This document shows, in pieces, positions 1 to 56,475 of a DNA stretch of 64,000 bases (positions within the stretch are counted from its first letter, which is position 1; each line of letters starts with the position of its first letter). The notes beneath the pieces are model-generated. The model searched no databases. It saw only the letters and a program-made list of their open reading frames with translations, and had not been told where the DNA came from. Source of the DNA: Takakia lepidozioides (lineage: Eukaryota > Plantae > Bryophyta). The stretch is taken from NCBI GenBank assembly GCA_030704615.1, contig CM060731.1, forward strand, positions 54,746,001 through 54,810,000. Direction: 5' to 3'. Made by a program: the position numbers and the translations under genes.

Positions 1-163
1 ACTCCTCAAGAGGTCACAATTTGAAGTTATTCAAGTCGTAAAATCCAGAATTGAAGGGTTAGATTTGACACATGTCAGATCATAATGAAGTTCATATCTG
101 TTAGTTTGTTTGACCATCTGTCCCATCAAAGTGTCTGACAATTGAAAATGAATGCTTCTGCAG

Positions 164-26347: not shown

Positions 26348-29300
26348 CTAAGAGAGCTGCCACTCCTCCGGGAAGTTGTCATTCCATTGTACCCTCAATT
26401 CTGATAATCTGGAGCAGATCTTTCCTCATTTGCCCCAAGATTGATCAAACTCTTGGAGGAGTTTTTTGCGCCTCCTCTCCCCACATCTGGAAAGAGCTGA
26501 TCCCAACACACCCCAAGCTTTCCGAGCCTCAGTCATGATGTCTGAGTGAGTCATAAACAGTACAGACCTTACTGAGAACGGCTTACCCGAAAAAATCAGA
26601 TCACATCTGGCCTTCCACACGTACCACAAAGTGTGAGCACTCAGGGCAGCCCATACCGGACATTTGGACCACAAATGACCTCCCTGAACAAAGCAAAACA
26701 GCTATATCATTCCGAGGGCTCCATAGAGCGTAGAAAGTAGTCACATAATGCCAAGCATGGCTGGCCCTCGGGCAAGAAACAAAGCAATGCTCCAGGGATT
26801 CTATATCCCCCAACGAGCAAGAGGCGCAGACTGGGGAAGAGTCAGGAAAGCAAGTTTTGAGAGGAAAGATCCGATTCACTAATTTCCAAAGGAATACTGA
26901 AACTTTGGCTGCACGGTCTTTACGCCAAACATCTTTCCAAACACATTTCCAGGAAGATGGGCAGGATTGCAGGTGTCTCCACTTCGCTGTCCATTTAAGA
27001 TCCATGGAAACCATCGGATTTAGCATAGAGTAACCCAGTTTTATAAGCAAAAAAAGGAGAACTAAGCATATCCTTCCACCTCCACTCCCCGGGGTCGAAT
27101 TGTAACAAGGCCAACAGGAAGAACGGATTTGTATGACAGCCATTATCAGCGGTAGGATTCGCAACACCTGTGGCCAAGCAAATGACCGGAATTGCAAAGC
27201 AAGCATCCTCTGAGACCAGGGCAGGTCTTGGAGAGTGAAGAATGCCAGAGTCCAAAACCCGGAAACACCAACCAGATAACCTGGAATCAGAACGGGATAA
27301 TGCAAAGAAGGCTGTTTTAGAAGAACCGTTTTCAAAGGATAACCAGGCTTGGAGACCCCTTTTGTTGGCCAGGAATGATGCCAGAGAAACCCAAGCAGAT
27401 GGGAGATTTGCAGTCACTACATCCCATCCAGCTCTGATTCTTCTACGAGAGAGGGAGTCTTCAGCCACCTCTGCATGGATAAGAGATCCATTTTCCCATA
27501 AATGGAAAAAACTAGAGATACCCGCCGCATCCCAAGCAGCCCACCTGGCAGAGCACTTAAGCAATGTCTCTGACTCGTGATTGCATTCCCAAACAGCGGT
27601 TGTTTGAGCACTTCCTCTGTAATGGTAGATTTGGATTGCGTAACATGACCCCTCACAGTGAACCAAGCCTGCCATATTGATCTCCAAGCTTGTGAGCCCG
27701 AAAGAGGCATGGAGTTTGAGGAGCCTCCCTGCACAACCCATCTCAGGGAAGGAGGCCAAATTGAGGAACGAGTAGGACGAGCCTTGAGGAGATGATGCCG
27801 AACCAGGAGACTCCAAGGTGATAGAGAATGAGTGAACACCATTGGGATCCACTTGGCTAGAAGGGCCGCGATCTGTGATTTAGGGTCTATAATACCAAGG
27901 CCACCATTACTCTTTTTTTGGGTCAACTACTTCCAACTCACATGCCCCAAATGAAGTTCCACATCATAGCTTTCATCTTTTTGATGAAGGCCTCTCCTGG
28001 CGACCAAACTGAAGAGCCAAACCAGCTAGAAGCCAACACAACTTGGTTAACAATAGTAGCTTTGCCCACTATAGAGAGGTGCACCGAGCACCAGTAGGCG
28101 AGCTTCTTCTTGAGGCTTGCAAGGATACCTTCAGCATGCAGAGCGTCAGAAAGGTCATGCCCAACCAAATGACCCAAGAGAACATGCGATTGGCCTTCCT
28201 GCAGCCAAGAAAGACCGAGGGCTTCCTCCCAAGGGGCTGTATGGGCAGCCACCGTGGAGTCCTTTATCTTGGATAAAATCCCTTTAGACTTACTCCAGTT
28301 TATATTCAGACTAGAAGCAGCACAGAATTGCGACAAAGCAAGCAGGGCCCGATCCACATTAGCCATAGTGTTGTTATCAATTAACAAGAAAGTATCATCA
28401 GCATATAGCGAGGATTTTATATTATTATTTGGGATAGATGGGTGCTGGATTTTAAGCCCCACCACATCTGGCCTGTTGTGTAGGAGATGGCTGAGTCCAT
28501 CTGCAGCAATAATAAACAGAAAGGGAGATAGTGGGCACCCTTGTCTCACCGACCGGAAAAGAGGGAAGGACCTTGAGATGGATCCATTGACCAACACCTT
28601 ACTAGATGCTGATTGAAGAAGAATGGTAATCCATTTGAGGAAGTTGTCCGTTATACCACAATTTTTGAATCGCCCCCAGCAGATAGGAACACTCAATATT
28701 ATCAAAGGCTTTCTCGAAATCCAGCATTAGCATTGCTAATGGCTGGTTAGCTTCGAAGTGAAGAGCTTCTTGAGCAAGCAAGATTTTATCCAATATCATA
28801 CGGTCCTTTAAGGACCCTGTATGCTCAGGTTTGATGAGCTTGTATAGAAGCGGTTGAATCCTTAGGGCCAAGGCCTTAGCTATAATTTTGTAGACTGTAT
28901 TTAGCAAGGTTATCGGTCTATAGTTGGAGATGGAATCACGGTCCCCCTTTTTGTGTATAAGAGTAATCACCCCTTGGCTAATCTGAGAAGGCATAATGCC
29001 TTTGAGAAGAATGTCTTCAGCAAAAGCTGTAAAATCATCCCCACACACTGACCAGATTGTCTGGAAAAGCTCCACTGGTAACCCATCTAACCCCGACGAT
29101 TTATACGAGGCAAGCTTTGACAACGCATCTGACAGCTCGTTTGATGTGAAAAGGGCAGACAGTCTCACCAGCTCTGATTCAGACACAATTGGAATGTAAG
29201 AAGAAAGCACAGAGCTTCGGGAAGCCAGATCCTGCGGAGATGCAGTACGTGCTCCAAACAGGGTAGTGAAATGCGAGGCAGCCAGGGAGGACATCTGCTT

Positions 29301-30534
29301 TGGGTTGGAGACCGGCAACCCCTAGGCATTATTCAGGGATGCAATGGATGTAGCATCACGGCATTGCTTAGCTTTAAGAAAAAAGTATCTTGACATCTTC
29401 TCACCCTTCATAGACCAATTGATGCCTGCCTTCCTTCTCATGTTCTCCTCCTTTGCATGAAGCAACTCTGCCAAGTTCTTTTTGGCTAAGTGAAAAGAGT
29501 CCCAGGTCCGGTTGTAGACCCATCCCGACTCAATCACTTTCTGACACTGAGCAAGGCATTTGGTGAGAGCCTTTTCTTGCCTATTCCTGCCCGAGATTTC
29601 CTGCCCCACTCTTTTAACAACTTCCATTTTCTTCAAGAATTTCATCGTAGGGGAGGTGAAACCCAATCCAGCTGAAAGCCAGGTCGATTTTATCAGGTCC
29701 AGGTACTGGGGGATAGCCAAGATGGAGGGGTTCAGCTTAAAGAAACCTTGCCCCTTGGAATGAGCACTTGGCAAGGAGAAGGAAGCACTAATCGTTGCAT
29801 GATCAAACCCTGGTAGAATGGGCCCTAAAGCTGCAGGCTTTGCCCAAAACAAGGGAGTGGGAGAGCAGTAAATTCGATCTAGGCGGGCGGGCCATGCAGA
29901 GGTCTGGGGGTTTTCGGTTGTTTGACCAAATACAACGTAAACCATCTTTGAAGGAGGTGAAAGGCTCAGACAGACCCACCGCAAAGCAAAGAAAATCCCA
30001 AGCCTCTAACTCTTCAAGAGACAACGAGTATGAAGTTGTTCCAAACCGATCCTCTATACACTCCACCATGTTCATGTCACCAGCGAAAATCCAATGAACA
30101 ACATCAGGACAATCCAAGATTTTAAGTCTCAGAAAAGGCCAGAATTCAATTCTTTCATCAACGGAATTGGGAGCATAAATGTTCACAAAAGCGCACCCTC
30201 GAAGGGCTGAAATGGAAGAAGCAAAAGCAACCTGAATTCTCCCTTGCATCCAAGATTCAACCCTAGTGAATTATGAAATCAAAGCTGGTGAAATCAGAAT
30301 AGCATTTCCACCTCTAGAGTCTGCTATCGAAGGGTTCCACCAGGCAGCATTGCTAGGCCATAAAGCATTGCCTAATGCCTGGATTTTCACTGCATTTAGT
30401 TTGTGCTCTTGTAAAAAGATGATCTGATTAGAGTTCGTAGAGGTGGCCGCCCACTGTTGAAGACGGCGGCGTTTAGGCAAAGAGGCTCCAGATCCAATGC
30501 CTCTGATATTCCACGAGGTAAGGCCAAAATTCAT
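26348..30534 (-). pseudogene. LINE ORF2 (AP endonuclease - reverse transcriptase - zf-RVT) with several stops and frameshifts
   Basis: MNFGLTSWNIRG, FLQEHK, NIYAPN, AGDMN, ARLDRIY, FDH (APE); NYRPITLLNTVYKI, LDFEKAFD, RQGCPLSPFLF, LYADD (RT); CASC..ESLEHCFVSC, LWYVWKARC (C-terminal). Confidence 0.9.
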
Positions 30535-30682
30535 GGAGGAAAAGCTTGCAAGCCCATGGCAAAACCACGAATTGATGGCTTGGAGAAAACTGGGAGGACA
30601 GGAAGATCTTTGAGGATGGGCAAATGTGGCAATTCTCTTAAGGACAAGGCTTGAGATGGATGCTCCGAGCAGTAGGTGTAGG

Positions 30683-32306
30683 TCAGACCCCCCTCCAGAC
30701 AGCACATCGAAACACCTGGGGTGAACTGGAACCTCCATTGCACCACGACTCATGACTGAGACAAATGGACAGGCCTCCCCAAGAGAAGAACTCAACAGAG
30801 TAACTGGAAAGCAAGAAAGGAAAGAACTGAATGGAGAAGTCAAGCACCACATCTCTAGGAGAACAGGGTGGAGGGCAGAATCTCCGAGAGAAAGCGTAGA
30901 ACCATTGCAAAAATCCACCATAACCAACGGTCAAGCTGAAAAACAGCAGGGCAGATTGTTTAAGACTCACCGGTGGAGGTGATGGGATCAGCAAATCAAC
31001 ATGAGCCATTGCTCCCTCCCCCTTCTCACCCTCCTTTGCATTGAAGACCACCAAACCATTGCTAGATCTAGGGACATCCTCAGCTGAGGCCATAACTTTG
31101 ACAATCTCTGTCGCCATAAGGAGCTTCCTCCCTGCCGAGTAAATTTCATACAACCAAGAGAGCTTTCCTAATCCTGCAGCCTGAGCACACACATCAGCAA
31201 GGCTCATGACTGGAAGAACCTGTAAAGAGTAAGGGAAGGTGGATGAGTTTTCCTTACATAAATAGGTCCCAAAGAAGAGGGCAGTCTCAGCCGAGAAGAA
31301 AAACAGAGGAAGACGGGAAGAAAAAAGATCATTCACCTTAGATTCCATCAAGTTGAGTTCCTGGGAAGGCAGTAACTTACTGACATCCGAATCCGATAAC
31401 CAGGAACTGATGAAAGTATCAAGCCCTGAAAGCAAGATTGCAGGCTTGCCATCCGGTAAACCATAAATGATAGGGGTCACTCTGATGTTAACCAACAAGT
31501 AACCACCATAAGGCAAGACATCCGATAGAGACACGTCAGACAGAGCGAGATCATCAAAAGACTTTAATTGAGAGAGACAGAAGGAAGCCAAATTGAGAGT
31601 CTCATCTCCTCCCAAACTGAAAACAGCCAGAGATGAAGGGCGGAATGAAGAGGAAGCTGGGGAATTAGCAGGCAGAAGGTAGATCCTTGGACTTATGGAA
31701 GGAGAGCATGTAATAGAGTCACGAAAACGCTTGGCAGGGGGCTGCTCAAGCGGCAATGAGTCCATCCTTTTTCTAATCAACGAGGAAGGGGGACAATACC
31801 GCGTCGCATTGAAGTCCCTTTAGTGGCTGCAACGGGATTGGGAGGAAAAAACTCAGCAGCCTTACCTGGAAGGTCTGGGCAATCTGCCTTAACATGACCC
31901 TCACAATGACAATGGTGACAAATAATGGAAAGAATTTCTTCTTGAATTACCACCGATATAAAAGAGCCATCTAAGGATGGGAGCTTGATGGTCCTCGGGA
32001 TCCGAGCCTTCTCCGGCATTAAAACCACCAGCCTGGGAATCCTGCTGTCTCTATGACCGCCAAAAGAGCTCCCATCATGATCCACACTGTGAGCCTCGGG
32101 GAAAAAGTGATCGTTCGGTAAAATGGAGCCAATGAAAGCACCAAAATGTGCTCCGATCTCTGGCAATGAACGCAGATAATTACCCGGGAGAAACGGAAGT
32201 GCTATGATCCGTGGCTTACATGTGGCCCCCCCTTTGTGACCCCAATCTGGGGACCATGGAAACAAAATCACTCTGTACCTCTATTTTGGAGTATTGAACT
32301 TTAGGG
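30683..32306 (-). pseudogene. LINE ORF1, 3' part (VILFPWSPDW, CCHC zinc knuckle), frameshifted
   Basis: ORFs 31777-32271 and 30683-31780; CX2CX4HX4C knuckle; sits directly upstream of ORF2. Confidence 0.72.
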
Positions 32307-32657
32307 TGTCAAGTTAAATAAACACAGTGTGAAACTAACTAGAATAAATCTAGTTATTTGTATTTAACACTTGGATTTAGTTCAAGTGTTAAGTCAGGTG
32401 TCAAGTTTAGTTTGACACCTGAACCATCTTATGTTCACGAGAGCGTCAGTCGCGCAGCTCATCTCTCTCGAGTTGAGCCTGCACGACCGATCTCCTTCAC
32501 CATGTAGAATCTGAGTGTGCTTATGAAGGGAGAATAGGTTGTTGTGGGGTGGAGTCCCCATAGCTTGGGGTGCCCCTGGCTCGACTACTATGCTAAAGAG
32601 TGATGGTGTTGGTTTTCATGTTTCTTGTGTCAACAGTGTGTTTTTAGTTTTCAATCA
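32307..32657 (+). repeat. Terminal direct repeat A1 (351 bp, LTR-like, TG...CA)
   Basis: Matches 42655-43005 except T32491/G42839 (by eye). Contains three tandem stem-loops at 32336-32422. Confidence 0.92.
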
Positions 32658-33182
32658 CTCGAGAGAGATGAGCTTGCATCTGTGAGTGCCAGAGGTGAGT
32701 TTAGTTTTAGCACTTGTGGTTTTTGTTTTGAAAATGAGAGAGACGGGGGCTCTGTGTTGGTTAAACTTGAGCTGCAGGTTTCTCTGGTAGATTCTAGCCT
32801 TGTGATTGATCATCAACTTGTCGTTGGTTTTCCTGTGCCTGCTCCTAGTTTGCATGTGATCGAAGGCCTTCCTATATCTGAGGCACCAGTGGTAGCAAAT
32901 CCTTCGTTGGTCTCGGATGTGCCTACAGTTACAAGTGCTCGGGCTACTTCATCAAGCTTGGATTACGTTGACCTTCTTAGGGCTGAAGAGGCCTTCACAG
33001 AACGAGCATTGTACTTGGCACGCAACTCGCCCCGCTTGGGCGATACTGGCCAGAGGGAAGCGGAGGTGCTTCTTTGAAGTTCTTTGAAGGGGCATAAAGT
33101 GAAGTTTTTGTGTTTTGGCGCTCCTATTCTGGCGCTGGAGCCTCTCAATCTGGCACATTGTGGGTGCTTGTTTTGTGTGTAG

Positions 33183-33408
33183 AGGTGGGCTGGACCTGCT
33201 GTTTGGGTCTAAGAAGAAACACGAGGTTGATGTGAGCCCCACCAATGGCCACGCCAAGTTGACAGTTGGACTGCTGCTGGTTTGGATTCGTGACAATCTG
33301 CTCAAGGAGAGGCCAGGTGTGCTAGTATTGATCAACGACTGTGACTGGGAACTTTGTGGGTGTCTTGAGGCCATCTTGGAAGACAAGGACAGTGTGACAT
33401 TCATTTCC
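33183..33408 (+). pseudogene. URM1: Ubiquitin-related modifier 1 (URM1) gene fragment
   Basis: [62 protein letters not shown] is URM1-like. It begins after an intron-like tgtgtag, lacks the first exon, the segment between the two RP dipeptides, and the C-terminal TLHGG. Confidence 0.85.
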
Positions 33409-33524
33409 AGGTGACGGACGTGAGAGAGGAGCGGCCGGGCGGGGACCTCGGGGTCATCAAATGGAATGAAATGTCGAGCAAGTGCTCTCACCCCGAGCGG
33501 TGCCCGTGACTGACCATACACGGA

Positions 33525-34077
33525 CTATCTTGGAGATTGGTCCATTAATGCAACCAGAGTCTGAAGTTTTGAATCCTCATGAGGCACCCAATCATATCAC
33601 ACAAAAAGCAGTCGAAGAGCGGGATCCGTGCATGCACTGGCTGAACAGACAAGCTCCTTCAGTTCTTTTCATTTGTTTTGGGACCCTTGCCACCATTCAG
33701 CACCACAAATCCTGGAGCTGGCACAGGGACTCGAAGCCAGCAAGCAACCTTTCTTATGGATAATGCAGACGCCAAACGCCGCTACTACATCTCCTTCATT
33801 GATAGCACCGTCCATCACAGAACTCCTCCCTTCAGGTTTTGATGAATGCACACAAGAACGTGGGTTATGTTTCTCTGGATGGGCTCCTCAGTCGCGTATT
33901 CTGTCCCATGCAGCCACTGGTGCTTTCTTGACCCATTGTGGATGGAACTCTGTCCTGGAGGGTCTTAGGGCAGGCATCCCCCTCCTTACTTGGCCAATTC
34001 AGGCAGAACAAATGCTAAACGCCAGAGTAGTGCTGGATCAGAAGGTGGCTATAGAGATGCCAATTAGACCAATTTGA
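33525..34077 (+). pseudogene. Family-1 UDP-glycosyltransferase C-terminal fragment with PSPG box, frameshifted
   Basis: EIGPLM..CMHWLNRQAPSVLFICFGT / QILELAQGLEASKQPFLW..WAPQSRILSHAATGAFLTHCGWNSVLEGLRAGIPLLTWPIQAEQ. No N-terminal half. Frameshift near 33700. Confidence 0.88.
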
Positions 34078-34822
34078 TGGAACTTCAAGCTAGTCTTGGC
34101 CTTGGATTTCATGCAAAGACAGTCACATTACAGCAGGCCACTATCAGTCCATAAGAAGAAGAAGAGATCATGTGACAAGACAAGTAGAAGATGCCAACAT
34201 CACAAAATTACGAACCGACACGTCCATTGTGTTGCAGGGTTCCAAGGTGTTGCAGGCAAACCCTTTCCCCTGATTACCATCCGTGCCGTGGCCAGGCAAC
34301 CCTCTGATATCAATCAGGTCCCATAGAACTGGCAATGACTGCTGTAGACCAGTCTACTCCTGATACTTGTGGTCCTCCATTCTCTGATTCCTCCTCAACC
34401 TTTCGCAGATTGGCACCTTTCAGGTTCAATTGACTCAAGGTATCTCCTCAACTTTTCACGTTGAGGTGTTCTGCATTGACTCCCAGTGCGCCATGAAAAC
34501 TGCGTCCAAGGAATTCTTAGGGAACCTGCAATGAATCGCAAAAAACGTGGGAACAGTTTTTAATGGCGAGAACGTTTTGGTGTTAAAAAATTAATATAAA
34601 TTTAAAAAAATTATACAAAAAACCCCTCTTTGTTCTAATTTAAATGATTTAGAGCCTAATTGGTCATATCTTTGTCATATGAGCTCCGTTTGACACAGTT
34701 TTTGAGGGGATAGCTGTAAAAAGAGGAAATCTACCTACCTATCTACCTACCTATCTAAAAATCTATGGAATTTTTTGAGTGTGAGTGTGCTATGAAATAT
34801 CCACAATTCTGTTTCTAGAACC

Positions 34823-36084
34823 TGTTGTGGTCTACATGAGAGACAAATCTATGGATGTCCTCCTTGTATGGTTGGGGGAAAGGAGGACGTAATTGAAGGG
34901 CAGGTCTCTTCTCTTAGCCTGTGCACACAAGGGGACAAGATTTATGTTTCTCAAGGGACTCAGACTGACATGAGTGGAGAGCAGTTGGACGAGTTGATTG
35001 CATACTGGGAGTCAGGCATTAGCAGTAGACAACACACTGCTGTAGTTGGCATTGAGGGCCTCAATATTGCTTTGGACAATCAGAACTTTGTTGGAGCCAG
35101 CAGTTCTGCAGCTGTAGGTGAAATACCAAAGTGGGTGAAAGCTAGGCTTGGAACATAGCCAAAGATAGCCCCGGGGACCAAGGTGTTTAGCCACAAGGCC
35201 GTGGTGTACTGGAGCAGAGGAGTAGGAGCTACACAAGTTTGTGCAATCAGACATGATTGCAGCCGGACACGTTCTACACGGGGCAACCACGAGCGGGGGT
35301 TCATTAACAATGAAAAGTTTGTTCTGCTTGAAGGAGATGCAGTTATTCGCAATGAGGACACCCGCAACCGTCTCAAAGCTTTCGAGTTGAGAGACTGTCA
35401 GACCCTACCTTTATTTTCTTTAGTGTTCAGTGAGCGGGAGATAGGGGAGTATTGCTTTGTCTCTACCTGGCAGAAAGAGAAGGAGGGTTGGTTAGAGCGA
35501 GCTATTGTAGCTTGGGACAAGGTTAGTGGCAGGTTTTTGGACATAGATATACCTCCTACACCTTACCATCATGCAGAGCGAGGCACTTTGAGAGAAATCT
35601 GGCAGTTGATAGCATAGATCAGGATTAGATCTTGCTTGGTCGGGCTTCTATTCTTCCCCTCCTCTCTTTACTATTTTCATTACTTTGTACTTGTAGTTGC
35701 CAAAGCCTCTCTTGGTGGAGGCCAGTCAGTCCGGGGTTTTGGGCTGGGTTATTCTGCAGGATCAGCATTGCAGATGGATTTTGGTGTGGGGGTGTTGATG
35801 TTTTGATTTCTTGTGTTTGGATCCCCCCCAACACCTGCATGCTTGACTGTGCGCCATGTTGGTTTTGTGTAGGCGCTTGCTTTCATAGGGATTAAGCCGA
35901 ATTTGATCACCGGTCAATCCTAGAGTATGCTGTCGGTGGTGAGGCTGGAGTGATGACCAGCAAGACCACCAGTGTTTCTTCTATGGTGAGACTGGGTTAA
36001 TGACCAGCCAACCATAGGAGTTCTTGCGGTGGATGCAGGTGCAGATGCCCTGAGCCACTGGGATATGACCCTTAAACTGCAACA
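34823..36084 (+). repeat. Candidate 5' LTR of the Gypsy-DNMT element (TGTTG...CAACA), followed by a PBS-like GGTGCCCACCCGTG
   Basis: 5-bp inverted termini, abrupt compositional change at 34823, and position just upstream of gag. No second copy in the window to confirm it. Confidence 0.45.
34868..35617 (+). pseudogene. Unknown ~250-codon ORF upstream of gag, broken by one in-frame TAG (35156-35158)
   Basis: ORFs 34868-35158 and 35183-35617 are in the same frame. No domain recognised. Confidence 0.4.
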
Positions 36085-36196
36085 GGTGCCCACCCGTGTC
36101 ACTATTAGAATTAGTACTAGAGCCTTATAGTGTCACGTGGGGGAGGTGCACATTGTGAGTGTCATCACGGAGTTACCCAAGGGTTTTGAGGGGAGT

Positions 36197-39100
36197 ATGG
36201 CTACAGGTAGTAACAGTGAGAGTGGGTTCACAAGACGAGGTATTCGGTTCAGACCACCTTCACCTCCACCCTCAACTAGTGCAGAGTCAGACATAGACTC
36301 GGAGGCTTCATCAACAGGTGTGCAGTTTCATTCGCCATTGTTGTGGGACGACATGGAGGAGATGTATAGAGCTACCAAGGGGCCTCGTAGGTACTCTGGA
36401 GCTGTGGGCACAATTGAGGTGGATGACTTTATCTAGGAGTTCGACAGCTGGTGTGATTTGCAGCAGATGCGCAATCCACAGCTGTTCACCCCATTCATGG
36501 CGTGGAAGGGACTGTTCCAGCATTTGGAAGGCCCGCCTATGGACAATTACCACGAGTTCAGGCGAGGACATGAAGCAGAGATTGAAGAGTGGAGCATGTA
36601 TTGGTCACCTGACTATGTCTCCATTACTCGAGACGCGACCGGTAGCTGCATCAGCACCAATATCTCCCACTGCCAGCACTAGAAGTGGAACAAGTAGTGT
36701 CGGTACTTCTGCAGGTGGTACCAGTTCAAAAGGTGCTACTACTACTCCTGCCACAACTACAACACATGTGCCTAGATTCAACCCGGTGGTGGAGTTCTTC
36801 CAGGAGTTGCGGAGGAACTACCAAGGTGTACGGACAGAGAAGCTGCGAAGTTTGCACCAGCGCAAACCCAGTGAGAGCCTGCGAGAGGCATACACTCATA
36901 TGAGGCGCTTGATAAGTGTGACCCAAGGGGTTACTAAAGCTCAGGCAATCCAGTTCTGGTATGGAATTTTGGACAAGGAGATCAGGAGAAGGGTGCGGGA
37001 TGCAACCCTGTTACAAGCAGCCCAACCCACGTTAGCAGATGTATTTTTGCTGGCTGAGCGGATTGAGCTCAACATGGTGGAGGAGCAAGTTGTTACCATT
37101 GGATTTGGCAAAGACATGCCTACACGAGGCGCAGCTGCCAGCCCACAGGCACAAGGGACTGCCCAACAGCGTGGTCAGGGGGGCAAGGTTTCCCAACCCA
37201 AATTTCATGGAGCTTACAGGGACCTCAGGTGCAGAGGCCATAGCTTCTTTTGCAAGCCAACAGCAACCAGGGGTGATATGTTGGACATGTGGAGGACCCC
37301 ATGTCAAGAGAGATTGCCCAGAGAGTGGCAAAAGGCCGGCACAAACACAGCCTGCACAGTTGCAGTGTGGGCATTGTGGCAAGTATGGGCATGGAGATGC
37401 CCAGTGTTATGACTTGCATCCTGAGTTGCGCCCAGGCCAGTTCCAAGGGAACAATGGTGGCGGGGGGGGGAGGTGGACCAGCCCAGAGAGGACGAGGTGG
37501 CCGGGCACGCGGTGCAGGCAAGGGCAAGCTCAACATGGCCAAGGACGCGGAGGTCAGGGTGTTGACCAAGGCATGGCCAACGGCTTCAGCAGCTAGAGCA
37601 GAGGGTCGCTGCCATGGCTACAGCTCAAGTGGTACCGGCTCCCAGGCGGGATGGTCCACCTCCTGCTCCTGAGAGAGGAGATATGGGAGGCATGGGATTC
37701 ATGTGCGGAGCAGCACTACCACTAGAGCAAGTGGAGTCTGCTGCAGCCGTGACTCGAGGAGCAGCACGAGTTCCTGAGCCACGAGGTGCAGAGGTGGAGT
37801 TGGATCCACAGCGTGGGGAGGCAAGCCGTTAGGCGAGGCTTCCTCAGTCATTCACATTGGCGGAGACAGTGTCGACGCCATCCATGGCACCTAGTTCTCG
37901 CCCGACTGTTACCGAGGCGGAGGTTACTATGCCATTGGGGAGAGCTACACGTGCATCACTGACACCTGCTACCAAGGCTAGTGCAGCCGGTGTGTTATTG
38001 GGGGCAGCCACCTCTGTGTGTCAAGCCCCACTGTTTTTGGCAACCATGATTGCGACGTCGGGGGTAAGACCAGCTGCAGTGTTCAGACTAGCAGCAACAC
38101 TCTGTGAGAGTGGGGAAGTCACTTCATCTTCTGCGGAGTTACTAGAAGGTGTAGTGGTAGAGGGATCCTCGGATTTGAGGGTCAAGACTGCCACGGCTGC
38201 GCCATGGCAAGTTGCAGCTGCCAGGTTGACGGAGCTGCCAGCTAGGCCAGCCTTTGAGCGCGCCATGGTGACACCTGGAGTTGTCTTGTTAGACAACCAG
38301 GATGACATTTTCTCTTTGAGTGGACCGGCAGGCAAGAAGTACCGGCCACTGCGGGTCTTGTTGGACTCGGGAGCTCAGCCACTGATGTTGGGTAGAGCTG
38401 CTATTGCAGGTTTGGGCCTCATGGAGGCAGATATGGAGCATTGTCCTTTCCAGATACAGACATCTCTGGGAGGATCAGAGCAGGCTCGGGGCATGACACG
38501 GCATGAGTTGGCCATTAGATTGCAGCCGGATCATCCTATAGATGGCTCAGTGATGCGAGCCAAAGCCATTGTGACAGACGCGGTCTCTTACGATGTCCTC
38601 GTTGGTGGAACAGTGTTATATCCCATGGGCTTCACCCTGGACTTTTGGGAGGAGTCAGCATCTATAGGCCTGGATGGCAGTCAGGGGATGGTCGTCATGC
38701 ACAGCTCCCTGTGACATTCATTGGGGGTATTGCGGCTGCCCAGCGGGGCAAGATGCCAACACTAGCCACCTTTACAGCTGCAGTTAGTTGGCCTGGAGAG
38801 TTGCTGGAAGGCAATGCCCATGCAGAGGATGTGTCACCTTCAGCAGAGCAGGATGACATGCATGGTACGGCGGAGTTGCCTGCCATGGTTGCTCACACTC
38901 CATTGTGGGGTACGAGCAAGGATTTGCAGCAGGCTGCTGATGGACGGGTGCAACAAGCCTGGGTAGAGGCCTTCGTACCGTCAGGAGAAGAGGAGAGTGG
39001 GTGATGCACTAGGACCACCTCAGTTGTGCCATTGGATACCACACCTCTTGTGTGGCAGTGCCCGGATGAAGGCATATGCCTTCTGGACTTGTTTGGCGGG

Positions 39101-42100
39101 ATCAGCACTGGATTGGCTGCAGTGCTGCAGGCAGGTGTACGAGTTCGACGTTACCTGTATGTGGAAAGGGATGAGATTGCACGACGCGTCTCACTACGCC
39201 ATGTTGCTCAGTTGGTACAGCAGTACCCTGATTTGTTGCCAGTGTCTGCAGTTCGTGAATACCAACAAGCCTTGCCAGCAGACATTTCGTTGCTGGGGGC
39301 GCAGGATTTGGAGCAGGTTGGCTCCATTGATCTGGTAGTGGCATGTTGGCCCTGCCAAGGGCATTCATCAGCCGGGCCATGGCAATGGATTGCGAGACTC
39401 TGAGGACGGGTCCTGTTTTGGTAGATGGTGCGGGTTTTGCGCCCTCACAGTTCATCAAGCTATATCTCCAGCATACATCTTGGAGAATGTGCCACTGATG
39501 GTGATTCTCGGGCCAGGGTGATCGCCAGTGTGCATCAAGTCCGGTCGTGGCTTGGGTCAGCAGTGTTTGTTGGATGCAGCTGCAGTTGGGTCACGAGCTC
39601 ATCGTCCAGGCTATGGTGGCCTAACTTGTTGCCACCCGCACTGCTCAGCGTGCATTTGATGGGGTGCAGCGACCAGCACACCTCACAGTGGATAGTCATT
39701 TTGGGACACCGGGAGGCAGTCTTCAAAGTGTTAGACACGACGACCGTTCGCCCTTGGCAGTGGTCCACATTGGGTCAACCACGAGCAGCATTACCTACAC
39801 TGCTCACTTCCCAGTGATCCCATGCTTTTCGGGATGGTGGGACCTGGCCTCTTGGTGGGATAGCCAGTGCAACAATTAGTGGAGCCCAATGCTGAGAGCG
39901 CGAACGGGCATGGGTTTTACCACTAGTACCGTACGGCGGTGCCATCTCTTTCTGAGGCATCCCGTCGTCAGGTGTTGGGCGAGCAATGGATCCTCAATTG
40001 CTTGACCTGGATTATTTAGGTTTTGGTGCTATGCTGGCAGCGCAGAGTACGAGTACACTCCCCTTGATGGTCTCCTTGCCTACCACCGGACGGTACAAGC
40101 AGCGAGTGGGGGCGAGCATGGTGTAACGCCGAGGTGCAGGCCGCATCCATGCCACGTGGGAGGTGCTCGAGGTTCAGAATGAGTTGGCAGCCAAGGCGGC
40201 GATGATGGATCAGGTTGGGGATTTTTCTCGGGTTGAGGAGGTCTCAAGGATGGGATGAAAGGGCAGGGTGAGACATTGTCACTGATAGAGGAGGCAGTGG
40301 TCACTGCTCAAGAGGTTGCAGCATAGCAACCACGGGACGCGTCTTCTACCTCTAAAGCATGCTGGACTCAAGGTTGCAGCACGGAGGACAACTGGGAGCC
40401 TGATGTTGGACCTATAGTCACCGGAGCGAGAGACGACGTATACGGCGGTTCTTGAGGGCTTACAGGAACTGCTTTGCCTTCAGTTTGAAGGACTTAGGAG
40501 CACTGAAGGGTCAAGAGATTCGATTGCATTGCTGACTTGAGTTGGCTACTGGACACGCCATCTTTTGGAGCCCTATAGATACAGTGACATGGAGAGTCCG
40601 GGAATTCAGATGAGAACTCAGGACCTTTGGGAGGCTGGTTTGGTGGAGCTATCTCTGAGGGAGATATGCTTCAGCCACAGTGATGCCAACCAAGAAGGTC
40701 TATGGGCATTGGGACGGAGAGACTATGATGCGGTGATTATCGGCCGGTAAATCGATCAGACGCACGTCCGATAGGTATGCCATGCCGACACCAGAGGAAA
40801 TCTTTGATGCATTAGGCATGCCAAGGTCCTTTAGCACTTTGATTTACGATCCGGATATCACCAGTTTCCGATCAAGGAGGCGGATAATAAGCAGAAGACG
40901 ACATTCTGGGGGATCAATGAGCACGGGAAGGATTGCCTATACCAGTGGCGGTTCTTACCATTTGGGCGTAAGAACGCTCCGGTAGAGTTTCAGAGAGTCT
41001 CGGACAGGATTCTGCAGGGGTGGAGTTTGCTCGGTGGCTACATAGATGACATGCATCATCTTTAGTGCACGGTGGAGGAGCATGAGAGACACCTTCAGGT
41101 GATATTTGAGAGCGCTTTAGGGCGCACGATTGAAGTTACATCCGGGAAGTGCAAGTTTTTTCACAACCAAATTGGGGGAGTATCTGGATCACATGATATA
41201 TCCTGGAGGATGGGGTACAGTAGACTAAGGTAGAGTCCATTGCACAGATGCCACGCCCCACGGATGTGAGCCGAGTTCGAGCTTTCATTCATGGGATTAG
41301 CAAACTATTATAGACGTTTGTTAAGGGATTTAGTACCATTGCAAAGGCTCTAACCAAACTGACCAAGGTGGACCAGAGTGGTAGTGGAAAGATGAGCAAG
41401 AACAAGCACTTTCAAGAGCTCAAAGAACCGGGTTGACCACGTCCTTTTCAGCTGCATACAGAGGGGCGCATGCTTTGGAGTGGTGCTCACACAGAGTGGT
41501 GAGGTGGATGATGAGGGAAGAGAGTTGTAGTGGCTTATGCTAGTCGCTCGAACAACGCTGCAGAGGCTAAGTATAGCTCATATGAGGGAGAGTGCTTAGC
41601 TGCAGTGTGGGCCGTGGCACACTTCAGGTGCTATCTATATGGCAATCTCTTCACCCTTGTCACGGATCACCAGCCACTCAAGTGGTTGATGGAGTCAGAC
41701 AAGCTTACGGGGAAGCTTGCACGGTGGCACTCATACTTCAAGAGTATGACTTTCAGGTTGTGCATCGACCGGGTTTGGTCAATCGGGATGTAGATGGGTT
41801 GAGTCGCAATCCATGCACGAGCCAGCAGGATGACACTGGAGCTCGGTGGCATGTGAGACGGACGAGGAGATGGTGCCCGGATGGCATGCATCTGCATTTC
41901 TGTGTATCTTGGCAGCAGAAGGCCAGGTTGGACCTGCAACAGGGATGACTGTAGATCAAGTGTTTAAGGACCCTGATGCCAGCAATGAGCAAGGTGGCGC
42001 CACAGATATACATGAGGATTCAGCTGTGTTGGACTACCTCCGCACTGGAGACACGGCAGCGACTGTGAATGCCAAGGAGAGGGATCGGATCCTACAACGA

Positions 42101-42602
42101 GCCAAGAGGTTCAAGTGGGAGGGGACACACCTGCTCCGAGTGTGGGAAGATGGTCGAGTGAGGATTGTGCCTCACCCAACCCGGCGGGCACGGTTAGTAC
42201 GGCATGCCCATGAGGAGTTGGGGCATTTTGGGATGCGACGCACTCATAGTCTATTGCAGGGGCAGTATTGGTGGCGTGGTATGCACACAGAGGTGTGCAA
42301 CAATTTGTGGCTAGGTGCATGGTGTGTGACAGGGTGCGTGCTTCATTCAAACGCCCCTACTCCACAATTGCACCTCTTCCGATCATGGGATTGGGCTACA
42401 GGTGGAGTCTTGACTCGCAGGGCCGTTGCCACTGACATGCGCCCACAACAAGTACGTGTTGGTGATGGTGGAGCACTTCTCTAAGTGGATCGAGTTGGTT
42501 CCATTGCCTGATAAGGCTAGTGAGGGAGCTGCATATGCATTCTTGGATTGTGTACTTAGCCGATTCGGTGCTCCAGCTGAGGTACTCACGGACCAAGGGA
42601 GA
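36197..42602 (+). mobile_element. Ty3/Gypsy retrotransposon coding region (gag with 2 zinc knuckles - protease - C5 DNA methyltransferase - RT - RNase H - integrase), degenerate and truncated inside integrase
   Basis: CWTCGGPHVKRDC and CGHCGKYGHGDAQC knuckles; LLDSGAQ protease; DNMT motifs at 39026-40015; MPTPEEIFD and YIDD (RT); AYASRSNN..YEGECLAAVWAV..TDHQPLKWL (RNase H); HEELGHFG..YWWRGM and VMVEHFSKW..TDQG (integrase). The order PR-RT-RH-IN indicates Gypsy. Confidence 0.92.
39026..40015 (+). pseudogene. Cytosine-5 DNA methyltransferase (DNMT3-like) catalytic domain embedded in the Gypsy pol
   Basis: Motif I LLDLFGGI, motif II YLYVE, motif IV DLVVACWPCQG (catalytic PC), motif VI YILENVP (~39473-39493), motif VIII RAHR..RLWW (~39594-39620), and motif IX/X-like EPNA..RERA.GF and RRQVLG.AMD.NCL (~39880-40010). 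Read across frameshifts. Confidence 0.85.
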
Positions 42603-42603
42603 C

Positions 42604-43091
42604 GTAGTTTGGACAGCGATGTAGTTGTGTAGCGATACGTATGCGCACGACAGCTGTCAAGTTAAATAAACACAGTGTGAAACTAACTAGAATAAATCTA
42701 GTTATTTGTATTTAACACTTGGATTTAGTTCAAGTGTTAAGTCAGGTGTCAAGTTTAGTTTGACACCTGAACCATCTTATGTTCACGAGAGCGTCAGTCG
42801 CGCAGCTCATCTCTCTCGAGTTGAGCCTGCACGACCGAGCTCCTTCACCATGTAGAATCTGAGTGTGCTTATGAAGGGAGAATAGGTTGTTGTGGGGTGG
42901 AGTCCCCATAGCTTGGGGTGCCCCTGGCTCGACTACTATGCTAAAGAGTGATGGTGTTGGTTTTCATGTTTCTTGTGTCAACAGTGTGTTTTTAGTTTTC
43001 AATCATTGTGGCAGACTACTTTATTGTGCATATATGTGTGGTGTAGTTTGGACAGCGATGTAGTTGTGTAGCGATACGTATGCGCACGACA
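42604..43091 (+). repeat. Right-end repeat block: B1 (49 bp) - GC - A2 (351 bp) - 37-bp segment - B2 (49 bp)
   Basis: gtagtttggacagcgatgtagttgtgtagcgatacgtatgcgcacgaca occurs at 42604 and 43043. The B1/A2 junction reads GACAGCTGTC, a perfect palindrome. Confidence 0.9.
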
Positions 43092-43444
43092 AGGGCCTTC
43101 TCTGCGTGGTCTGCAGAAACAAACATGAAAGAGTAGAACCCACGCCCAAGGGGAATGCAGAAGTGATGCGTGAGCCCCCCTTCAGGGCCGAGATGCTTGA
43201 AAGCCCATTGTCTTGCCCAGTGCCTATCCCTTGCACGGCCAGGAAAGTGGACCAAGATCCTAGTATCTTTTAGCAGATGGGAGTGCTCTCTAACCAGTTC
43301 CATGTCGATATGGAGAATCGGTCGATTGTCATCAACCACCCCCGCATTTTCACTCCACAGCTGGAAGTCATCTAAGGACGGGTCGAAAGCTGAAGAAGGG
43401 CCAAAACCCAGAACCCCAGAGCCGTTATGTGCCCTGCGATCCAT
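43092..43444 (-). pseudogene. LINE ORF1, 5' part (RRM/DUF4283-like)
   Basis: ..ILVHFPG..WARQWAFKHLG..IPLGRGFYSFMFVSADHAEKAL, continuing in frame at 32306 after removal of the insertion. Confidence 0.75.
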
Positions 43445-47809: not shown

Positions 47810-48240
47810 CTCCGAAAACGCAATGGCGACCTATAACCGTGGATAGTACTATTGCAGAAGTGCAGGATGGTTGGGTATAACGACGCCGTAATTGGGCACA
47901 GGAAAAGAAATAGCGGGCTGAAGGCTCGGGAGTGAAGCCAACAACGGTGAAAGTAATTGGGCTCTGCCAACCAAATACCCGGCTGCATCCTCCGGAGTGC
48001 AGGTGATAACGGCGCCGAAATGGGTCCCGGAAACCAAATACTCGGCTGAAGCCACCGGAGTGCAGCCGATAACGGCGCCGAAATTGGGTCCGGAAACCAA
48101 ATACCCGGCTGAAGGCTGGGGATTGCAACCAATAACGGCGCCGAAATTGACCTGCGGAAACAAAATTCTCGGCTGAAGCTTCCGCACTTCATGTAATAAC
48201 GGCGCCGAAATTGGGCGTCGGAGAGCAAATACCCGCCTTA
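47810..48240. repeat. Tandem ~63-bp subterminal repeats (ataacggcgccgaaattggg..aaccaaatacccggctgaag), ~6-7 copies
   Basis: Core recurs at ~47878, 47941, 48006, 48069, 48133 and 48196. Confidence 0.8.
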
Positions 48241-48285
48241 CGGTGAGGGAGGCCTTGCTCTCATTTTGCTCTTCACTCTTCTCTG

Positions 48286-48885
48286 TTGTGCCCATCTCCT
48301 CCCTGCTTTGAGTTCGTGCTGTGTCGTGAGGCCATGTCGTGCCCGAATCACATCTATCGACGCCAGACGGGAGTCATTTTCCCGAAAGCAGACGACATCA
48401 TTGTCTTCCTGGATGTTTACAGGGACGATCCTCGACTTGTCCAGCTGAGAGCAATGGAGTTTCTTCCAGGATTGCACGATTCTCCTGGACCCCGGCTGGG
48501 GAGCAGGTGGTTCCTACGCATCATGGACCTGGACTTTCCGCATGTGTGGGAGCCGAACAGATCACGCACAGCGTTGCTGTATCGCTGGAATTGTTGCGAG
48601 TGGACGTATGATGAGTGCATAGGTGAAAACTTTACGCGTGGACGGACTGGCTCGGAAAGTGGGGACATTCTCTTCAGTTATGAGGATGAGGAGGAGGGGA
48701 ACACAGGGCCCACTGTGAAAATGTCCTTCTACCAAGGGGGCGCTATCGATAAACACGACATCCTCGTTAGTTTCAACCGGGCGACAGAAACCACTGACAT
48801 TTTGTTCAAATATAGGCACCCGGTCACTGAGGAGGTCCTTGAGAGGCCAGTTCGAGTTCTTTCTTCTTGGGCGAGGGGACCATAG
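48286..48885 (+). CDS. Intact orphan ORF (~183-199 aa) inside the MULE, convergent with the transposase; possible accessory gene
   Basis: Uninterrupted globular-looking ORF (MSCPNHIYRRQTG...SSWARGP*) directly downstream of the left repeat array. No domain recognised. Confidence 0.5.
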   Translation: MCPSPPCFEFVLCREAMSCPNHIYRRQTGVIFPKADDIIVFLDVYRDDPRLVQLRAMEFLPGLHDSPGPRLGSRWFLRIMDLDFPHVWEPNRSRTALLYRWNCCEWTYDECIGENFTRGRTGSESGDILFSYEDEEEGNTGPTVKMSFYQGGAIDKHDILVSFNRATETTDILFKYRHPVTEEVLERPVRVLSSWARGP

Positions 48886-49341
48886 GTCTTGCATGCTAGA
48901 GTAGACATGTTTCAACTTGCTGACACTCATGGCACATACATTTTCATTCAGAAATCAAGCAACTTCCCTGTGCCATATGGGGAATATACATGCTTCGATA
49001 ATCTTCTGTTAATGTTATTTGCAATTCACTGCCAGTATGCTAGGACGTGTCTTTTGTCGTATGGATTGCTGTTTGCACAAGGTGCAGTATGCAAATGCTG
49101 GAATGTGCAGTAGGACCCTTCCCACTGGGACACGGAACTAGCAATCTTGTAAAGGCATCACATTTGCAGAACAGTAACAATGTATTTGTAGCAAATTGGA
49201 GTCTTCTCATAAAGGTGGACGAAATTCACATGTAGCCATGGCGATGCGGCACCACCAAGTGTATAATTCCTCACAAAAAAATAGGGTGCAAGAAGATGAA
49301 TGTAATATAATTGCCACTTTCTTCTTCCCGAATGTGGAATG

Positions 49342-52300
49342 TCAAGCAGTCCGACCAGTATCCTGCCGTAGGGCCTTGTGCAGCTCGTTGAAACTCAGTG
49401 TTGGAGCATGGATGAAGACGTCCACTGCGGATATGCAACTCATGCGCTTCATAAAAATGTAATAAAGGTGTTTGCAGGGGACGTATGCTGCATTCTTCGA
49501 TTCCATAACAAGGAAGTCCTCACAGTTGCAAGCTGGGTACTGTGAAACCGTGATTGCATACACGACACTGCGCGCAGCAGACCCGGCTGTTGACAACTGA
49601 AATATGCGCCCCATCCCGGGGTGAGGAACATCCCTGCAACCTTGCACTATGCAGGGCATTGCAAGAGCGTTGGCCATCCTGGTGTCGTTCGCCTTTGTTG
49701 GTGGCCGCCGTCTTTTTAGTTTACCCCACCGATGGGTGGGCCAAGCTGCGGGGTCACCCACCGGTATGCGGGGCGAAGAGCTTCTCATGGGAGGAGGATG
49801 ACGATTGGGAATTGGATTTCGTGGAACGTCTGTCCTCTCCACCAGTCGAAACCCTGCACTTCCTAGAGCGTCTGCCTCCTCCAGGGTAAGATCTGTACCA
49901 CTTGCCACAGGCCAGACTGCCGGTGGTTCAGGCATGCCTTGTACACCATACTTGGGCTTGCCGAACACACACGACATGATGTCGTGCCTGCAGAACCAAA
50001 ACTCCTTCAGTGTGGCCTCCACAAACTTTGCGCACACAAATCTCCCTGTGAAGCAAGGGGCAGGCACACCGCCCTGCGGGCTCCTCCGAATCATCTCATT
50101 GCATCTCTGGTTGGTGTCGACACGAACAGCACAACATTTGCCACGAAATGTCGGACGGGTCCATGCAATTCTCCACTGCGAGGCCGACACATCTTGCTCC
50201 ACGATTGGAATGTTGTATTGGGTAACGAAAACAGGAGCAACATGCCCATCCTCGGCATGTTGTCCCGAGTCTGGCAGCGATTCCATGGATGCTGCAGGAG
50301 AGGGGGTACGAGTCCTACTTCGTGGAGGCGTGGGACGCAACATCGTTGCGCCCCGAGGTTGAGTGCGGATGTTCATATCTGATCTCCATGAATCCCCATC
50401 CCCTCCGGGCATGTCCTCAATTCTTCTCTTCACCGGCCGGCTGCGGACATCGCCCTCCAGGCAGTTCCCCCGACTGTGTAACGGCGTTGACCTTATAGTT
50501 TCCCGCCATGCAGCAGTCCATTTTTTGGGATCGGTCGAACGATGCGCCGCCCTCATCAGCATCTCCTGCCTGTCTGGTCCAATACCCCATTGCTTTCCTC
50601 CCAGAAACTGGTAGTAATGAGATTGTTGCATGATGGCCCTCATAATATCTTCTGTTGTTGCTGTCAACATGTCAACGAGATGTGCTGCAGAGGAAGCACG
50701 CCAGGAAGAGTGCACCGATTCCGCCATGTTCGTCGTCGGCATATCCGTGTCATCCTCCAAGCTCATGTCCTGTTGAAGGAAATTAGATATGTCACTGATT
50801 GTGGAGAATGTCCAAGCACAAAACAGAACAATTGTCAAGTACAGAAATGTGTTACCTGTCTCATGTAGTCTCCAAACTGGCGGAATCTATAATGCCACCA
50901 CGCAAGCCACGTTTGCAGTTCTGGCTGATCTTTCACATCCACTGCCCCTGAAGACACCCACCAGGCGCGTATGGTTGCAAACTCGGTCTCCGCCTCGTCG
51001 ATGGAATTCGCATTTTTCCACGCTAGGCACATACTGATATGATCCTGCCGGTGGCGTGACGCCACGAACCTTTTCGTGTTTTGCATCAAACTCTGCATGA
51101 AGTGGAACCCGCAAGATCTCTCCTTTCCTTCCATTGGAGTCTTTGGGTTGTCCCCATATACCCTCCTAACTACAGCCCAGTTTGCCTGGGCATTGTCAGC
51201 CATGAAGCCCCTAAAATCGGGAGGGGGCAACTTGGCTCTCGCCATTTGCTCATTAATTCCGCGCCACATATGCAACTCCGAATCTGTGTCTTCTCCCTTC
51301 ATTTCGCAGATAGCAATGGTCATCAACTTTCTGCAATGTGGGTCGTATACATGTGCCCCCATTGTCACCCAATCGTGGTTGGTAATTCGTCGGATGTGGT
51401 CAAACATGACCCAACAATTTGAGAGGTCTCCACTGGTCATCCGCTTCACCAAATCGACGCCGCTCCCCGGTCCGCATGTTGACATCTTAAATATGAAGCA
51501 CCTGTCCGTCTCCGAGCCTTGACCAGGAAAGAAGCTGCCTTGAATGAAGTCGTAGCCGCATGTGCGCTTCACTTCCAAGATGGAGTGCATGTCTGATCCT
51601 CTTCCGATTCGTTTCTTGCAGCTGACAATGTGGTTCCTGACATTGGGGCTGCACACATGGGAGACAGCTTCCAGCAGGTCCTTCATGTCCCCCTCGCCCA
51701 GCTTCTCTCTTGTGCTTCCGTCCTCCGACATTATTCTGCCAATTGCAATCCTATGTGCCGATGCGAGCTATATCTGCTTTGGTTTTGCACCCGGCCTCAA
51801 CCTCACCTCCTCCTTGATAATATCCTGGGCTTGTTGAAAAGCGACTCTGCAATTGCCTCTGGCGAGGGGGTGCTCATGCTTTCCGATGTGAATGCATACT
51901 CTGGTGCACGCTGGGCCGACGGTCCCGACGTAGTACTGCTTGGCGTTGCACACTGCCATGCACGTAGGGGCTGCGTTGCAATGGGCACACTTGAACGTCC
52001 CTGCAGGAACTCTATCTTGAGGCCAAAATGGGGTCGACGAATTGCCAATCCAGTCAGTCTCATTCCTGGTGCCTTTGCTAGTGTAATAGTAACATGTGCT
52101 CGAGAAACATTTAAGATGCCCAGCACACAATACATATCTCACTCGAACTCCATCACCCAGGTTGGACGATGAAGTTTTGGTGACACTTCATTCCTGCGAG
52201 CATGCCGTCTGGGCCTGCGCCTGCCGGCACTGGAGGGAACTCGTAGATAGCATTCCCATCCACAACATCAGGCAAAGTTTCCACAGAATGGATTGGAGTT

Positions 52301-53022: not shown

Positions 53023-53159
53023 GATGGGTGATCAGTGCACGTAAAGATGAAGGTGTGTAACGTACGTTAAAAAAACGGACGAAAACAGCAAGTTCACATC
53101 GGATATTTGGTGCCTGAATTGTAATGTACAACCACTTGGGGTACAATAAATCAGGCCTT

Positions 53160-56472: not shown

Positions 56473-56475
56473 CTA

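Follow-up and report, generated by a model that had tools for sequence, protein, structure and literature searches.

Retrotransposons that carry a DNA methyltransferase of their own have been known in green plants since KnitGypsy-Dnmt3 was described from Klebsormidium nitens, where the accessible text presents it as an acquisition of the K. nitens lineage and the species table does not include Marchantia (de Mendoza et al., 2018; PMC5890265). Later papers speak of 'streptophytes', and their accessible parts name no bryophyte elements (PMC12344493; bioRxiv 10.64898/2026.05.21.726589). Here we describe a Ty3/Gypsy element with a DNMT3-type cytosine methyltransferase (DNMT) domain in a 64,000-nucleotide stretch of contig CM060731.1 (the window), whose family is very probably a land-plant relative of this already known kind. 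The explanation that best accounts for the whole, to which we give a probability of roughly 0.6, is a self-methylating Gypsy family that uses stop-codon readthrough and inserts end-joined complementary DNA (cDNA) by cutting it internally.

The methyltransferase domain and its relatives

A preliminary description of this DNA had noticed C5-methyltransferase motifs in canonical order between the protease motif LLDSGAQ and the reverse transcriptase (RT), on the strand of gag and pol, and we recovered exactly this arrangement in a domain of 330 codons (Table 1). The Pfam profile PF00145 matches the window in one frame (E 5.7e-4; 19.8 bits, under the curated cut-off of 22), a weak score that is explained by at least six shifts of frame within the domain. 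A profile built from seven natural relatives matches the same interval in three frames (E 2.6e-72, 1.8e-20 and 5e-4), with no other match in any of the window's six frames, and 10 of the 11 intact relative proteins scanned pass the PF00145 cut-off, so that the C5-methyltransferase match sought is present. Among solved sequences an intact Calypogeia protein is closest to DNMT3A (E 8e-11), followed by DRM2 (2e-4) and HhaI (3e-3), and for the modelled domain of the relative L074 (pLDDT, the predicted local distance difference test, 67) every listed top fold is DNMT3A, DNMT3B or DNMT3C. DNMT3A/3B thus come before DRM2 and the bacterial enzymes in both PDB sequence and fold comparisons, by which the domain is an unrearranged DNMT3-type methyltransferase. 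The ratio of nonsynonymous to synonymous substitution rates (dN/dS) lies at 0.11-0.18 for the DNMT in the five unsaturated of seven pairs (gag 0.12; ORF2, the second open reading frame, ~0.05), values by which the domain is under purifying selection in the relatives.

Summed contig depth, which is not a copy number, is alike over gag, DNMT, RT and integrase (IN) and exceeds the flanks several hundred- to several thousand-fold. A separate nested insertion of the DNMT, private to this copy, is excluded by that depth, by intact fused Gag-protease(PR)-DNMT reading frames in named bryophyte genomes and by the lack of borders.

The first 118 DNMT residues retrieved 72 homologues with 44-78% identity, the named plants being Marchantia polymorpha, Calypogeia fissa and Sphagnum troendelagicum; one of the 72 is labelled as a protein of a bacterial metagenome-assembled genome and is probably misbinned. 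A profile search added 107 longer proteins (named: Marchantia, Calypogeia, Sphagnum, Closterium, Chromochloris and Monoraphidium) and a representative library gave 460 matches with E < 1e-30, with no seed plant named among the matches listed. Marchantia carries at least five ORF1 proteins of 1,278-1,281 aa, 95-98% identical and all with motifs I, IV, VI and VIII, and its full-length copies are annotated as 'hypothetical proteins'. In K. nitens the protein KFL_013780020 (one of 20 looked up by name) is a partial Gag-CCHC-PR-DNMT that ends after the DNMT and shares 36% DNMT identity with Marchantia. The K. nitens DNMT is homologous (E 3e-60, the tree having neither an outgroup nor a K. nitens RT), and the family is very probably kin of KnitGypsy-Dnmt3.

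The DNMTs of the window (represented in the tree by motifs I-IV only), Calypogeia, Marchantia and Sphagnum form one clade (support 99 in the Shimodaira-Hasegawa-like approximate likelihood ratio test, SH-aLRT), and the RT of a second copy in the window clusters with Marchantia and with the same lineages from metagenomes (support 99, Cymbomonas dropped). Of the two suggestions of the preliminary description, that the lineage had persisted into land plants or had re-entered them, persistence fits the single clade better than re-entry; being midpoint-rooted and without host DNMT3, the trees do not show the donor or the order of events. A viral donor was not found, viral contigs giving only distant phage-type matches of 26-51% identity over short stretches. 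Many PHD-bearing Gypsy proteins (P0209-P0268, P0359) carry a homologous DNMT between RNase H (RH) and IN; their RTs make up a clade apart (support 99), in which Chromochloris, Monoraphidium and Cymbomonas are the named members. The DNMT domain has held two positions and reaches chlorophytes.

The catalytic cysteine is present in all 225 proteins with a detected motif pattern (282 examined), the window copy keeps the catalytic PC, and the land-plant clade retains motifs I, IV, VI and VIII with their Cys, ENV and RxR. The enzyme of the family is somewhat more likely than not to act on element cDNA. The domain might instead be kept for binding (of cDNA, RNA or S-adenosylmethionine) or for work on host chromatin, a doubtful alternative that gains from the replacement of PC by EC in 90 of the 282 relatives, from the two positions of the domain (ahead of RT or, in the clade that includes chlorophytes, between RH and IN) and from the inactivity of the Klebsormidium domain in yeast (PMC5890265, accessible text). 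The retention of the catalytic motifs in land plants speaks against it, as does CG methylation by the related SymbioDIRS-Dnmt3 domains, reported in the same text (PMC5890265). CG depletion cannot be credited to the element's own enzyme, and the 24 listed differences by context (3 CG, 10 CHG, 11 CHH) are not informative.

The stop codon between ORF1 and ORF2

The position of the DNMT between protease and RT, as first described, holds; its reading frame had to be corrected, as the domain does not belong to the frame of RT and instead ends ORF1 (Gag-PR-DNMT). Our comparison set comprised the window and 80 metagenome loci (L numbers) kept out of 304 confirmed. Intact ORF1s of 1,248-1,451 aa terminate after the DNMT, and of the 54 linkers in which the DNMT end is followed within 200-500 nt by the RT start, 43 hold a stop codon followed by CAR-YYN (32 TAG, 11 TAA), compared with a background of 277 in 33,275 stop triplets (0.8%). 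The contexts represent about five independent lineages, with the forms CAACCA (window, L032), CAACCC, CAGTTA and CAATCA, and the codon after CAR varies among Pro, Leu and Ser while always reading YYN. In the near-complete L046 a 1,369-codon ORF1 is separated by a single stop from an in-frame 1,047-codon RT-RH-IN-PHD frame, and L061 and L032 agree. No ORF2 start codon is shared between L046 and L061 and neither has a further long frame, no conserved AUG opening ORF2 was found, and no structure 3' of the stop is shared, by eye and without a shuffle control, across seven folded RNAs.

In plant viruses CARYYA is an established readthrough motif (PMC4132726, accessible text). Stop+CAR-YYN in the present family probably acts as a readthrough signal that would yield RT and integrase, which would leave protease and DNMT at the level of Gag. 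That ORF2 is reached by splicing, an internal promoter or reinitiation, with CAR-YY reflecting only shared ancestry or protein sequence, seems unlikely to us. Such routes would accommodate the 37 of 43 contexts without the final A of CARYYA, the 11 contexts with TAA (the poorer readthrough codon in one assay, in the source as far as accessible) and the different routes that other retrotransposons with a stop after gag may use (Tca2, likewise from a partial source). They sit poorly with three near-intact, distant elements (L032, L046, L061) that keep ORF1 and ORF2 in frame around a single stop, with an ORF2 devoid of a conserved AUG, and with a codon after CAR that switches amino acid while YY stays.

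The 11 linkers without the motif comprise eight from one subfamily with the DNMT fused to RT and three that are damaged or divergent. In the clade of the window DNMT and RT share a frame with a stop between them, and in L072-L079 and in Closterium proteins the two are fused. A second subfamily (L072-L080, L015:9-650) has the DNMT fused in frame to RT, and its motif IV reads EC; since this fused type and the Sphagnum-like type share contig L015, both subfamilies occur within one genome.

Permuted repeats and the proposed integration route

The bounds first given for the element, 36197-42602, were wrong; its repeats, target duplication and empty site set its real extent at 32307-43091 (~10.8 kb), beginning TGTCA and ending CGACA (TG...CA ends). 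The empty-site allele is seen in contigs of X2 and X3, two runs on one sample, and of X5, from another study, where 32302 is joined to 43092 and four letters fit either side. The order gag, PR, RT, RH, IN, the TG...CA ends and the 4-bp target duplication are those of Ty3/Gypsy; in place of two complete matching terminal long terminal repeats (LTRs) there is an A...B-A-B layout, in which the two copies of repeat A (351 bp) differ at one position and the truncated B1 (42604-42652) matches within B2. The relatives L063, L069, L074, L076 and L049 have the identical layout directly flanking the genes, and the right ends of L015, L031, L036 and L068 show it too. Among the nine elements with both ends, 4-bp duplications are perfect in five (including the window copy), match at 3/4 in two and fail in two. 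The B1/A2 junction reads GACA-nn-TGTC in four distant subfamilies (nn = GC, AC, AT, TC or GT) and unites a copy of the right end with a copy of the left end.

In all eight elements compared, the 10-18 nt that directly follow A1 can pair with a tract inside A (shuffle mean ~6), a match equalled in 0-6 of 500 shuffles across the eight; for the 18 nt of the window copy no shuffle of 500 reached that length (mean 5.5). The site does not begin with a tRNA-type TGG, and in four of the eight elements the complementary tract lies ~28 nt behind a TATA-like box. B1 starts directly behind a G-rich tract, and a polypurine tract is seen in relatives. Self-priming behind A1 and a purine tract ahead of B would make B-nn-A the functional LTR. 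The A2/B2 join runs from primer-site edge to purine-tract edge and is mostly precise, with 9 nt of the primer site retained at the join of L042.

Three simpler accounts were rejected. An ordinary LTR pair formed by A1 and A2 alone is excluded by the lack of a duplication around A2 and by an empty site that extends to 43092, and a DIRS element that had swallowed a Gypsy element by relatives with the same repeats right beside the Gypsy genes. The mirror form A-B-A...B was not seen at any of the 24 distinct left ends that remain of 26 rows once two duplicates are removed. A simple symmetric 2-LTR circle therefore fails and an asymmetry is needed: either the integrase has a preferred site, or an end-jump of RT, an activity of these enzymes, makes the join on a single strand. 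Four right ends (L016, L017, L018, L035) show, besides a purine tract, only one B (the A...B form), the product either of B1xB2 recombination or of a cDNA that had one LTR or was cut twice when inserted.

We propose that transcription would begin inside A and that the RNA, in the manner of Tf1, would self-prime on the site behind A1, while the plus strand would be primed at the purine tract ahead of B. The A end would then be joined to the start of B, by a circle or an RT end-jump, and the DDE integrase would cut at the internal CA-nn-TG, so that the element is inserted in its permuted form. Internal cutting of such an end-joined precursor is somewhat more likely than not. The layout is shared with elements of the DIRS order, and a cycle of the PAT/Ngaro type, in which the B-A junction serves as template to restore the ends on a single-junction circle, B2 is copied from RNA and the integrase opens the junction, would account for the missing mirror form and for the mostly precise A2/B2 joins. 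We think this cycle improbable, given a self-priming site and purine tract that mark out an ordinary LTR cycle, the LTR being B-nn-A, primer-site letters left at one join, 4-bp duplications that point to a DDE enzyme, and the lack of space in L046 and L061 for a tyrosine recombinase. In these two near-complete elements there are only two long coding units, and eight shorter frames from five loci gave no match to a recombinase.

At the level of the proteins, Gag-PR-DNMT would be made at Gag levels and the methyltransferase packaged in the particle, while occasional readthrough of the ORF1 stop would supply RT and integrase. Methylation of the cDNA, probably at CG, would make a new copy resemble host chromatin. 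Taken with the internal cut, this amounts to an ancient green-plant Gypsy lineage with its attachment site in mid-LTR, an obligatory end-joined cDNA and a Gag-level DNMT3 that methylates cDNA before insertion, a wider picture that we put forward as tentative and less likely than not.

Several observations weigh against the combined explanation. Besides the EC variant, the Klebsormidium domain failed to methylate yeast DNA, a result that its authors call inconclusive (PMC5890265, accessible text), and CG depletion in the elements (observed/expected, o/e, 0.28-0.70) is no different from the window. Most linker rows are copies of one Sphagnum-like moss family, exact CARYYA occurs in six of the 43 contexts (CARYYC in 37), and Gag-level dosage of the DNMT is not universal, as eight linkers of one subfamily have no stop. 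The two failing duplications belong to L076, which has none, and to L049, whose left end is eroded, and the complete lack of mirror forms counts here as well.

The window copy, its host and described systems

Table 1. Features of the element and of the second copy in the window.
Feature	Position	Strand	Remarks
Target-site duplication AGGG, left copy	32303..32306	.	empty-site joint fits
Repeat A1, left element end	32307..32657	+	starts TGTCA; 1 difference/351 bp vs A2
Predicted self-primer tract within A1	~32456-32473	+	
Predicted self-priming primer-binding site	32657..32674	+	18 nt complementary to tract inside A
Low-copy stretch	32675..34557	+	depth hundreds-fold under rest of element
URM1 fragment in low-copy stretch	~33181-33408		Pfam Urm1 E 6.9e-19
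UDP-glycosyltransferase fragment in low-copy stretch	~33709-34056		Pfam UDPGT E 6e-18
High-copy 5' region of family	34558..36196	+	by depth
273-codon frame with one stop, upstream of gag	34796-35614	+	high-copy
gag, broken	36197..37430	+	CCHC knuckles at 37279, 37366; 55-69% identity to Marchantia Mp4g09160
Aspartic protease	38280..38666	+	LLDSGAQ 38358-38378; relatives match Asp_protease_2
DNMT3-type C5 cytosine methyltransferase domain, motifs I-X	39062..40052	+	broken by frame changes and stops; motif I 39083-39103, II 39158-39172, IV (WPCQG) 39347-39361, VI (ENV) 39477-39494, VIII ~39591-39625, IX/X ~39876-39994
Stop TAG then CAA CCA between ORF1 and ORF2, predicted readthrough signal	40324..40332	+	conserved context
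RT and RNase H, broken	40458..41740	+	YIDD 41039; Pfam RVT_1 E 7.7e-16, RT_RNaseH E 6.7e-24
Integrase zinc finger and first part of DDE core	42176..42602	+	
Truncated B1, 2-bp spacer, A2 start	42604..42660	+	palindrome GACA-GC-TGTC
Repeat A2	42655..43005	+	
Repeat B2, right element end	43006..43091	+	86 bp; ends CGACA
Target-site duplication AGGG, right copy	43092..43095	.	
Second copy, 5'-truncated	53792..~56470	+	linker, same stop context at 54026, RT-RH-IN; lacks DNMT

The window copy is dead: it apparently inserted recently and has decayed, and it probably moved in trans. A deletion has removed the remaining integrase sequence together with the PHD finger and polypurine tract and has taken 37 bp off the start of B1, whereas other copies run on past 42602 (loose contig ends), and as B2 is whole the deletion probably followed insertion. 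The second copy is a member of the family, as first described; it begins downstream of the DNMT domain, is silent on it and was dropped as support for it. The two copies are 89.7% identical, with 112 substitutions and 67 indel events (44 single-base) spread patchily, from which some breaks may be assembly errors. If many of them were, the element would be a young insertion, near-intact apart from the 3' deletion. The proportion of indels and the single difference between A1 and A2 would suit this view, which we nevertheless regard as rather unlikely, because sites with A/T in the window and G/C in most copies are about twice as frequent as the opposite case, a bias that fits deamination and points to real decay, and because host exons of 617-738 codons are unbroken.

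The low-copy stretch behind A1 is probably captured host sequence, and its URM1 piece carries an internal gap. The 273-codon frame has no Pfam match and no counterpart in the 80 related loci, and it may be a species-specific extra reading frame. On its left the element abuts a decayed long interspersed nuclear element at 26601-32280 (-) with endonuclease, RT and zf-RVT matches. Beside the second copy, minus-strand transposase-like frames at 47877-53790, lying between two arrays of ~63-bp repeats with CGGCGCCGAAA, show a SWIM-like Cys/His motif by eye and no Pfam match, and look like a DNA transposon that truncated the second Gypsy copy. A tandem array of about ten 181-bp units (56430-58239) starts from the breakpoint of the second copy's integrase, and 53-bp direct repeats with matching inverted copies at 59100-60102 are possibly ends of the miniature inverted-repeat transposable element type.

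The land-plant surroundings noted at the outset are substantiated by a plasma-membrane H+-ATPase gene (18736-~24300, +), the first coding exon of which is unusually long. Its product is 83% identical to Sphagnum, 82% to Marchantia and Ceratodon and 78-80% to lycophytes, Riccia and Physcomitrium (76% to a second Physcomitrium paralogue), against 72-77% for seed plants. By this gene the host is a seed-free land plant and probably a bryophyte, and the H+-ATPase tree leaves it unplaced among seed-free plants; an algal or chimeric contig is ruled out. At 152-9852 (+) lie long coiled-coil exons of 382-738 codons from one large host gene, presumably resembling a trans-Golgi-network-localised SYP41-interacting protein, a candidate label, and across 1-16 kb the CpG o/e lies at 0.21-0.38, which hints at methylation of the gene body.

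What transposon-borne DNMTs do has been an open question since 2018, in part because their hosts were hard to handle. As Marchantia polymorpha has at least five ORF1 copies with intact catalytic motifs, the question becomes testable in a genetic model with methylation mutants. The position of the stop codon predicts many methyltransferase molecules per particle, and the repeat layout implies a route of integration unlike that of textbook LTR elements. That layout probably hides the family from LTR-finding software, so that repeat annotations of bryophytes and counts of DNMT genes may be inaccurate. If the wider picture given above is true, this is a land-plant transposon writing its own methylation and a natural DDE retroelement with end-joined DNA as its obligatory precursor, for which the circle junctions of the IS3 family and the early circle-precursor model of retroviral integration offer parallels.

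In the literature consulted, which took in few subscription journals and neither Repbase nor bioRxiv supplements, there was no report of land-plant members, of the readthrough stop or of an internal integration site, and the accessible parts of 10.1101/363937, PMC11096116, PMC11899658, PMC9940879, PMC2774666 and PMC7192593 hold nothing on the present family. The REXdb survey, which in its accessible description required two conventional LTRs, would probably miss it.

The comparisons that follow rest on the accessible parts of the papers cited. EpiLTRs also combine a Gypsy element with a cytosine methyltransferase and a chromatin reader, but their DNMT is sister to DNMT4 and accompanied by DAM and a chromodomain, and they are stated to be distinct from streptophyte Gypsy-DNMT3 (10.64898/2026.05.21.726589). 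Tf1/sushi, Tj1 and Tcn1 resemble the present family in a primer site complementary to the predicted RNA 5' end, and Tj1 also in a stop after gag, but they have two complete LTRs and chromodomains (Tcn1), and a DNMT is unmentioned (PMC4600332, PMC6317226). The integrase of foamy virus cleaves palindromic 2-LTR circle junctions and so is likewise a DDE enzyme acting on a palindromic two-end junction (PMC1180852); that junction arises from the cDNA ends, whereas here the cut site would be a fixed sequence within the LTR, at a distance from where the cDNA is predicted to end. PAT, Ngaro and VIPER elements and SymbioDIRS-Dnmt3 share A...B-A-B repeats with an internal copy of the end junction, and a methyltransferase domain is found among them (PMC7192593, PMC5890265), but their enzyme is a tyrosine recombinase, unlike the DDE integrase with PHD finger, Gypsy RT, TG...CA ends and 4-bp duplications of the present family. 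The closest system, KnitGypsy-Dnmt3, has Gypsy domains with an unrearranged DNMT3-type domain under purifying selection and, by the legend of Fig. 4, a DIRS-like repeat layout (PMC5890265). Its DNMT is described as lying in the ORF of RT; in the window's clade of land-plant elements the domain lies in ORF1 before the stop, and target duplications, predicted self-priming and an internal att-like junction, unmentioned for KnitGypsy-Dnmt3 in the accessible text (PMC5890265), are features of the elements described here.

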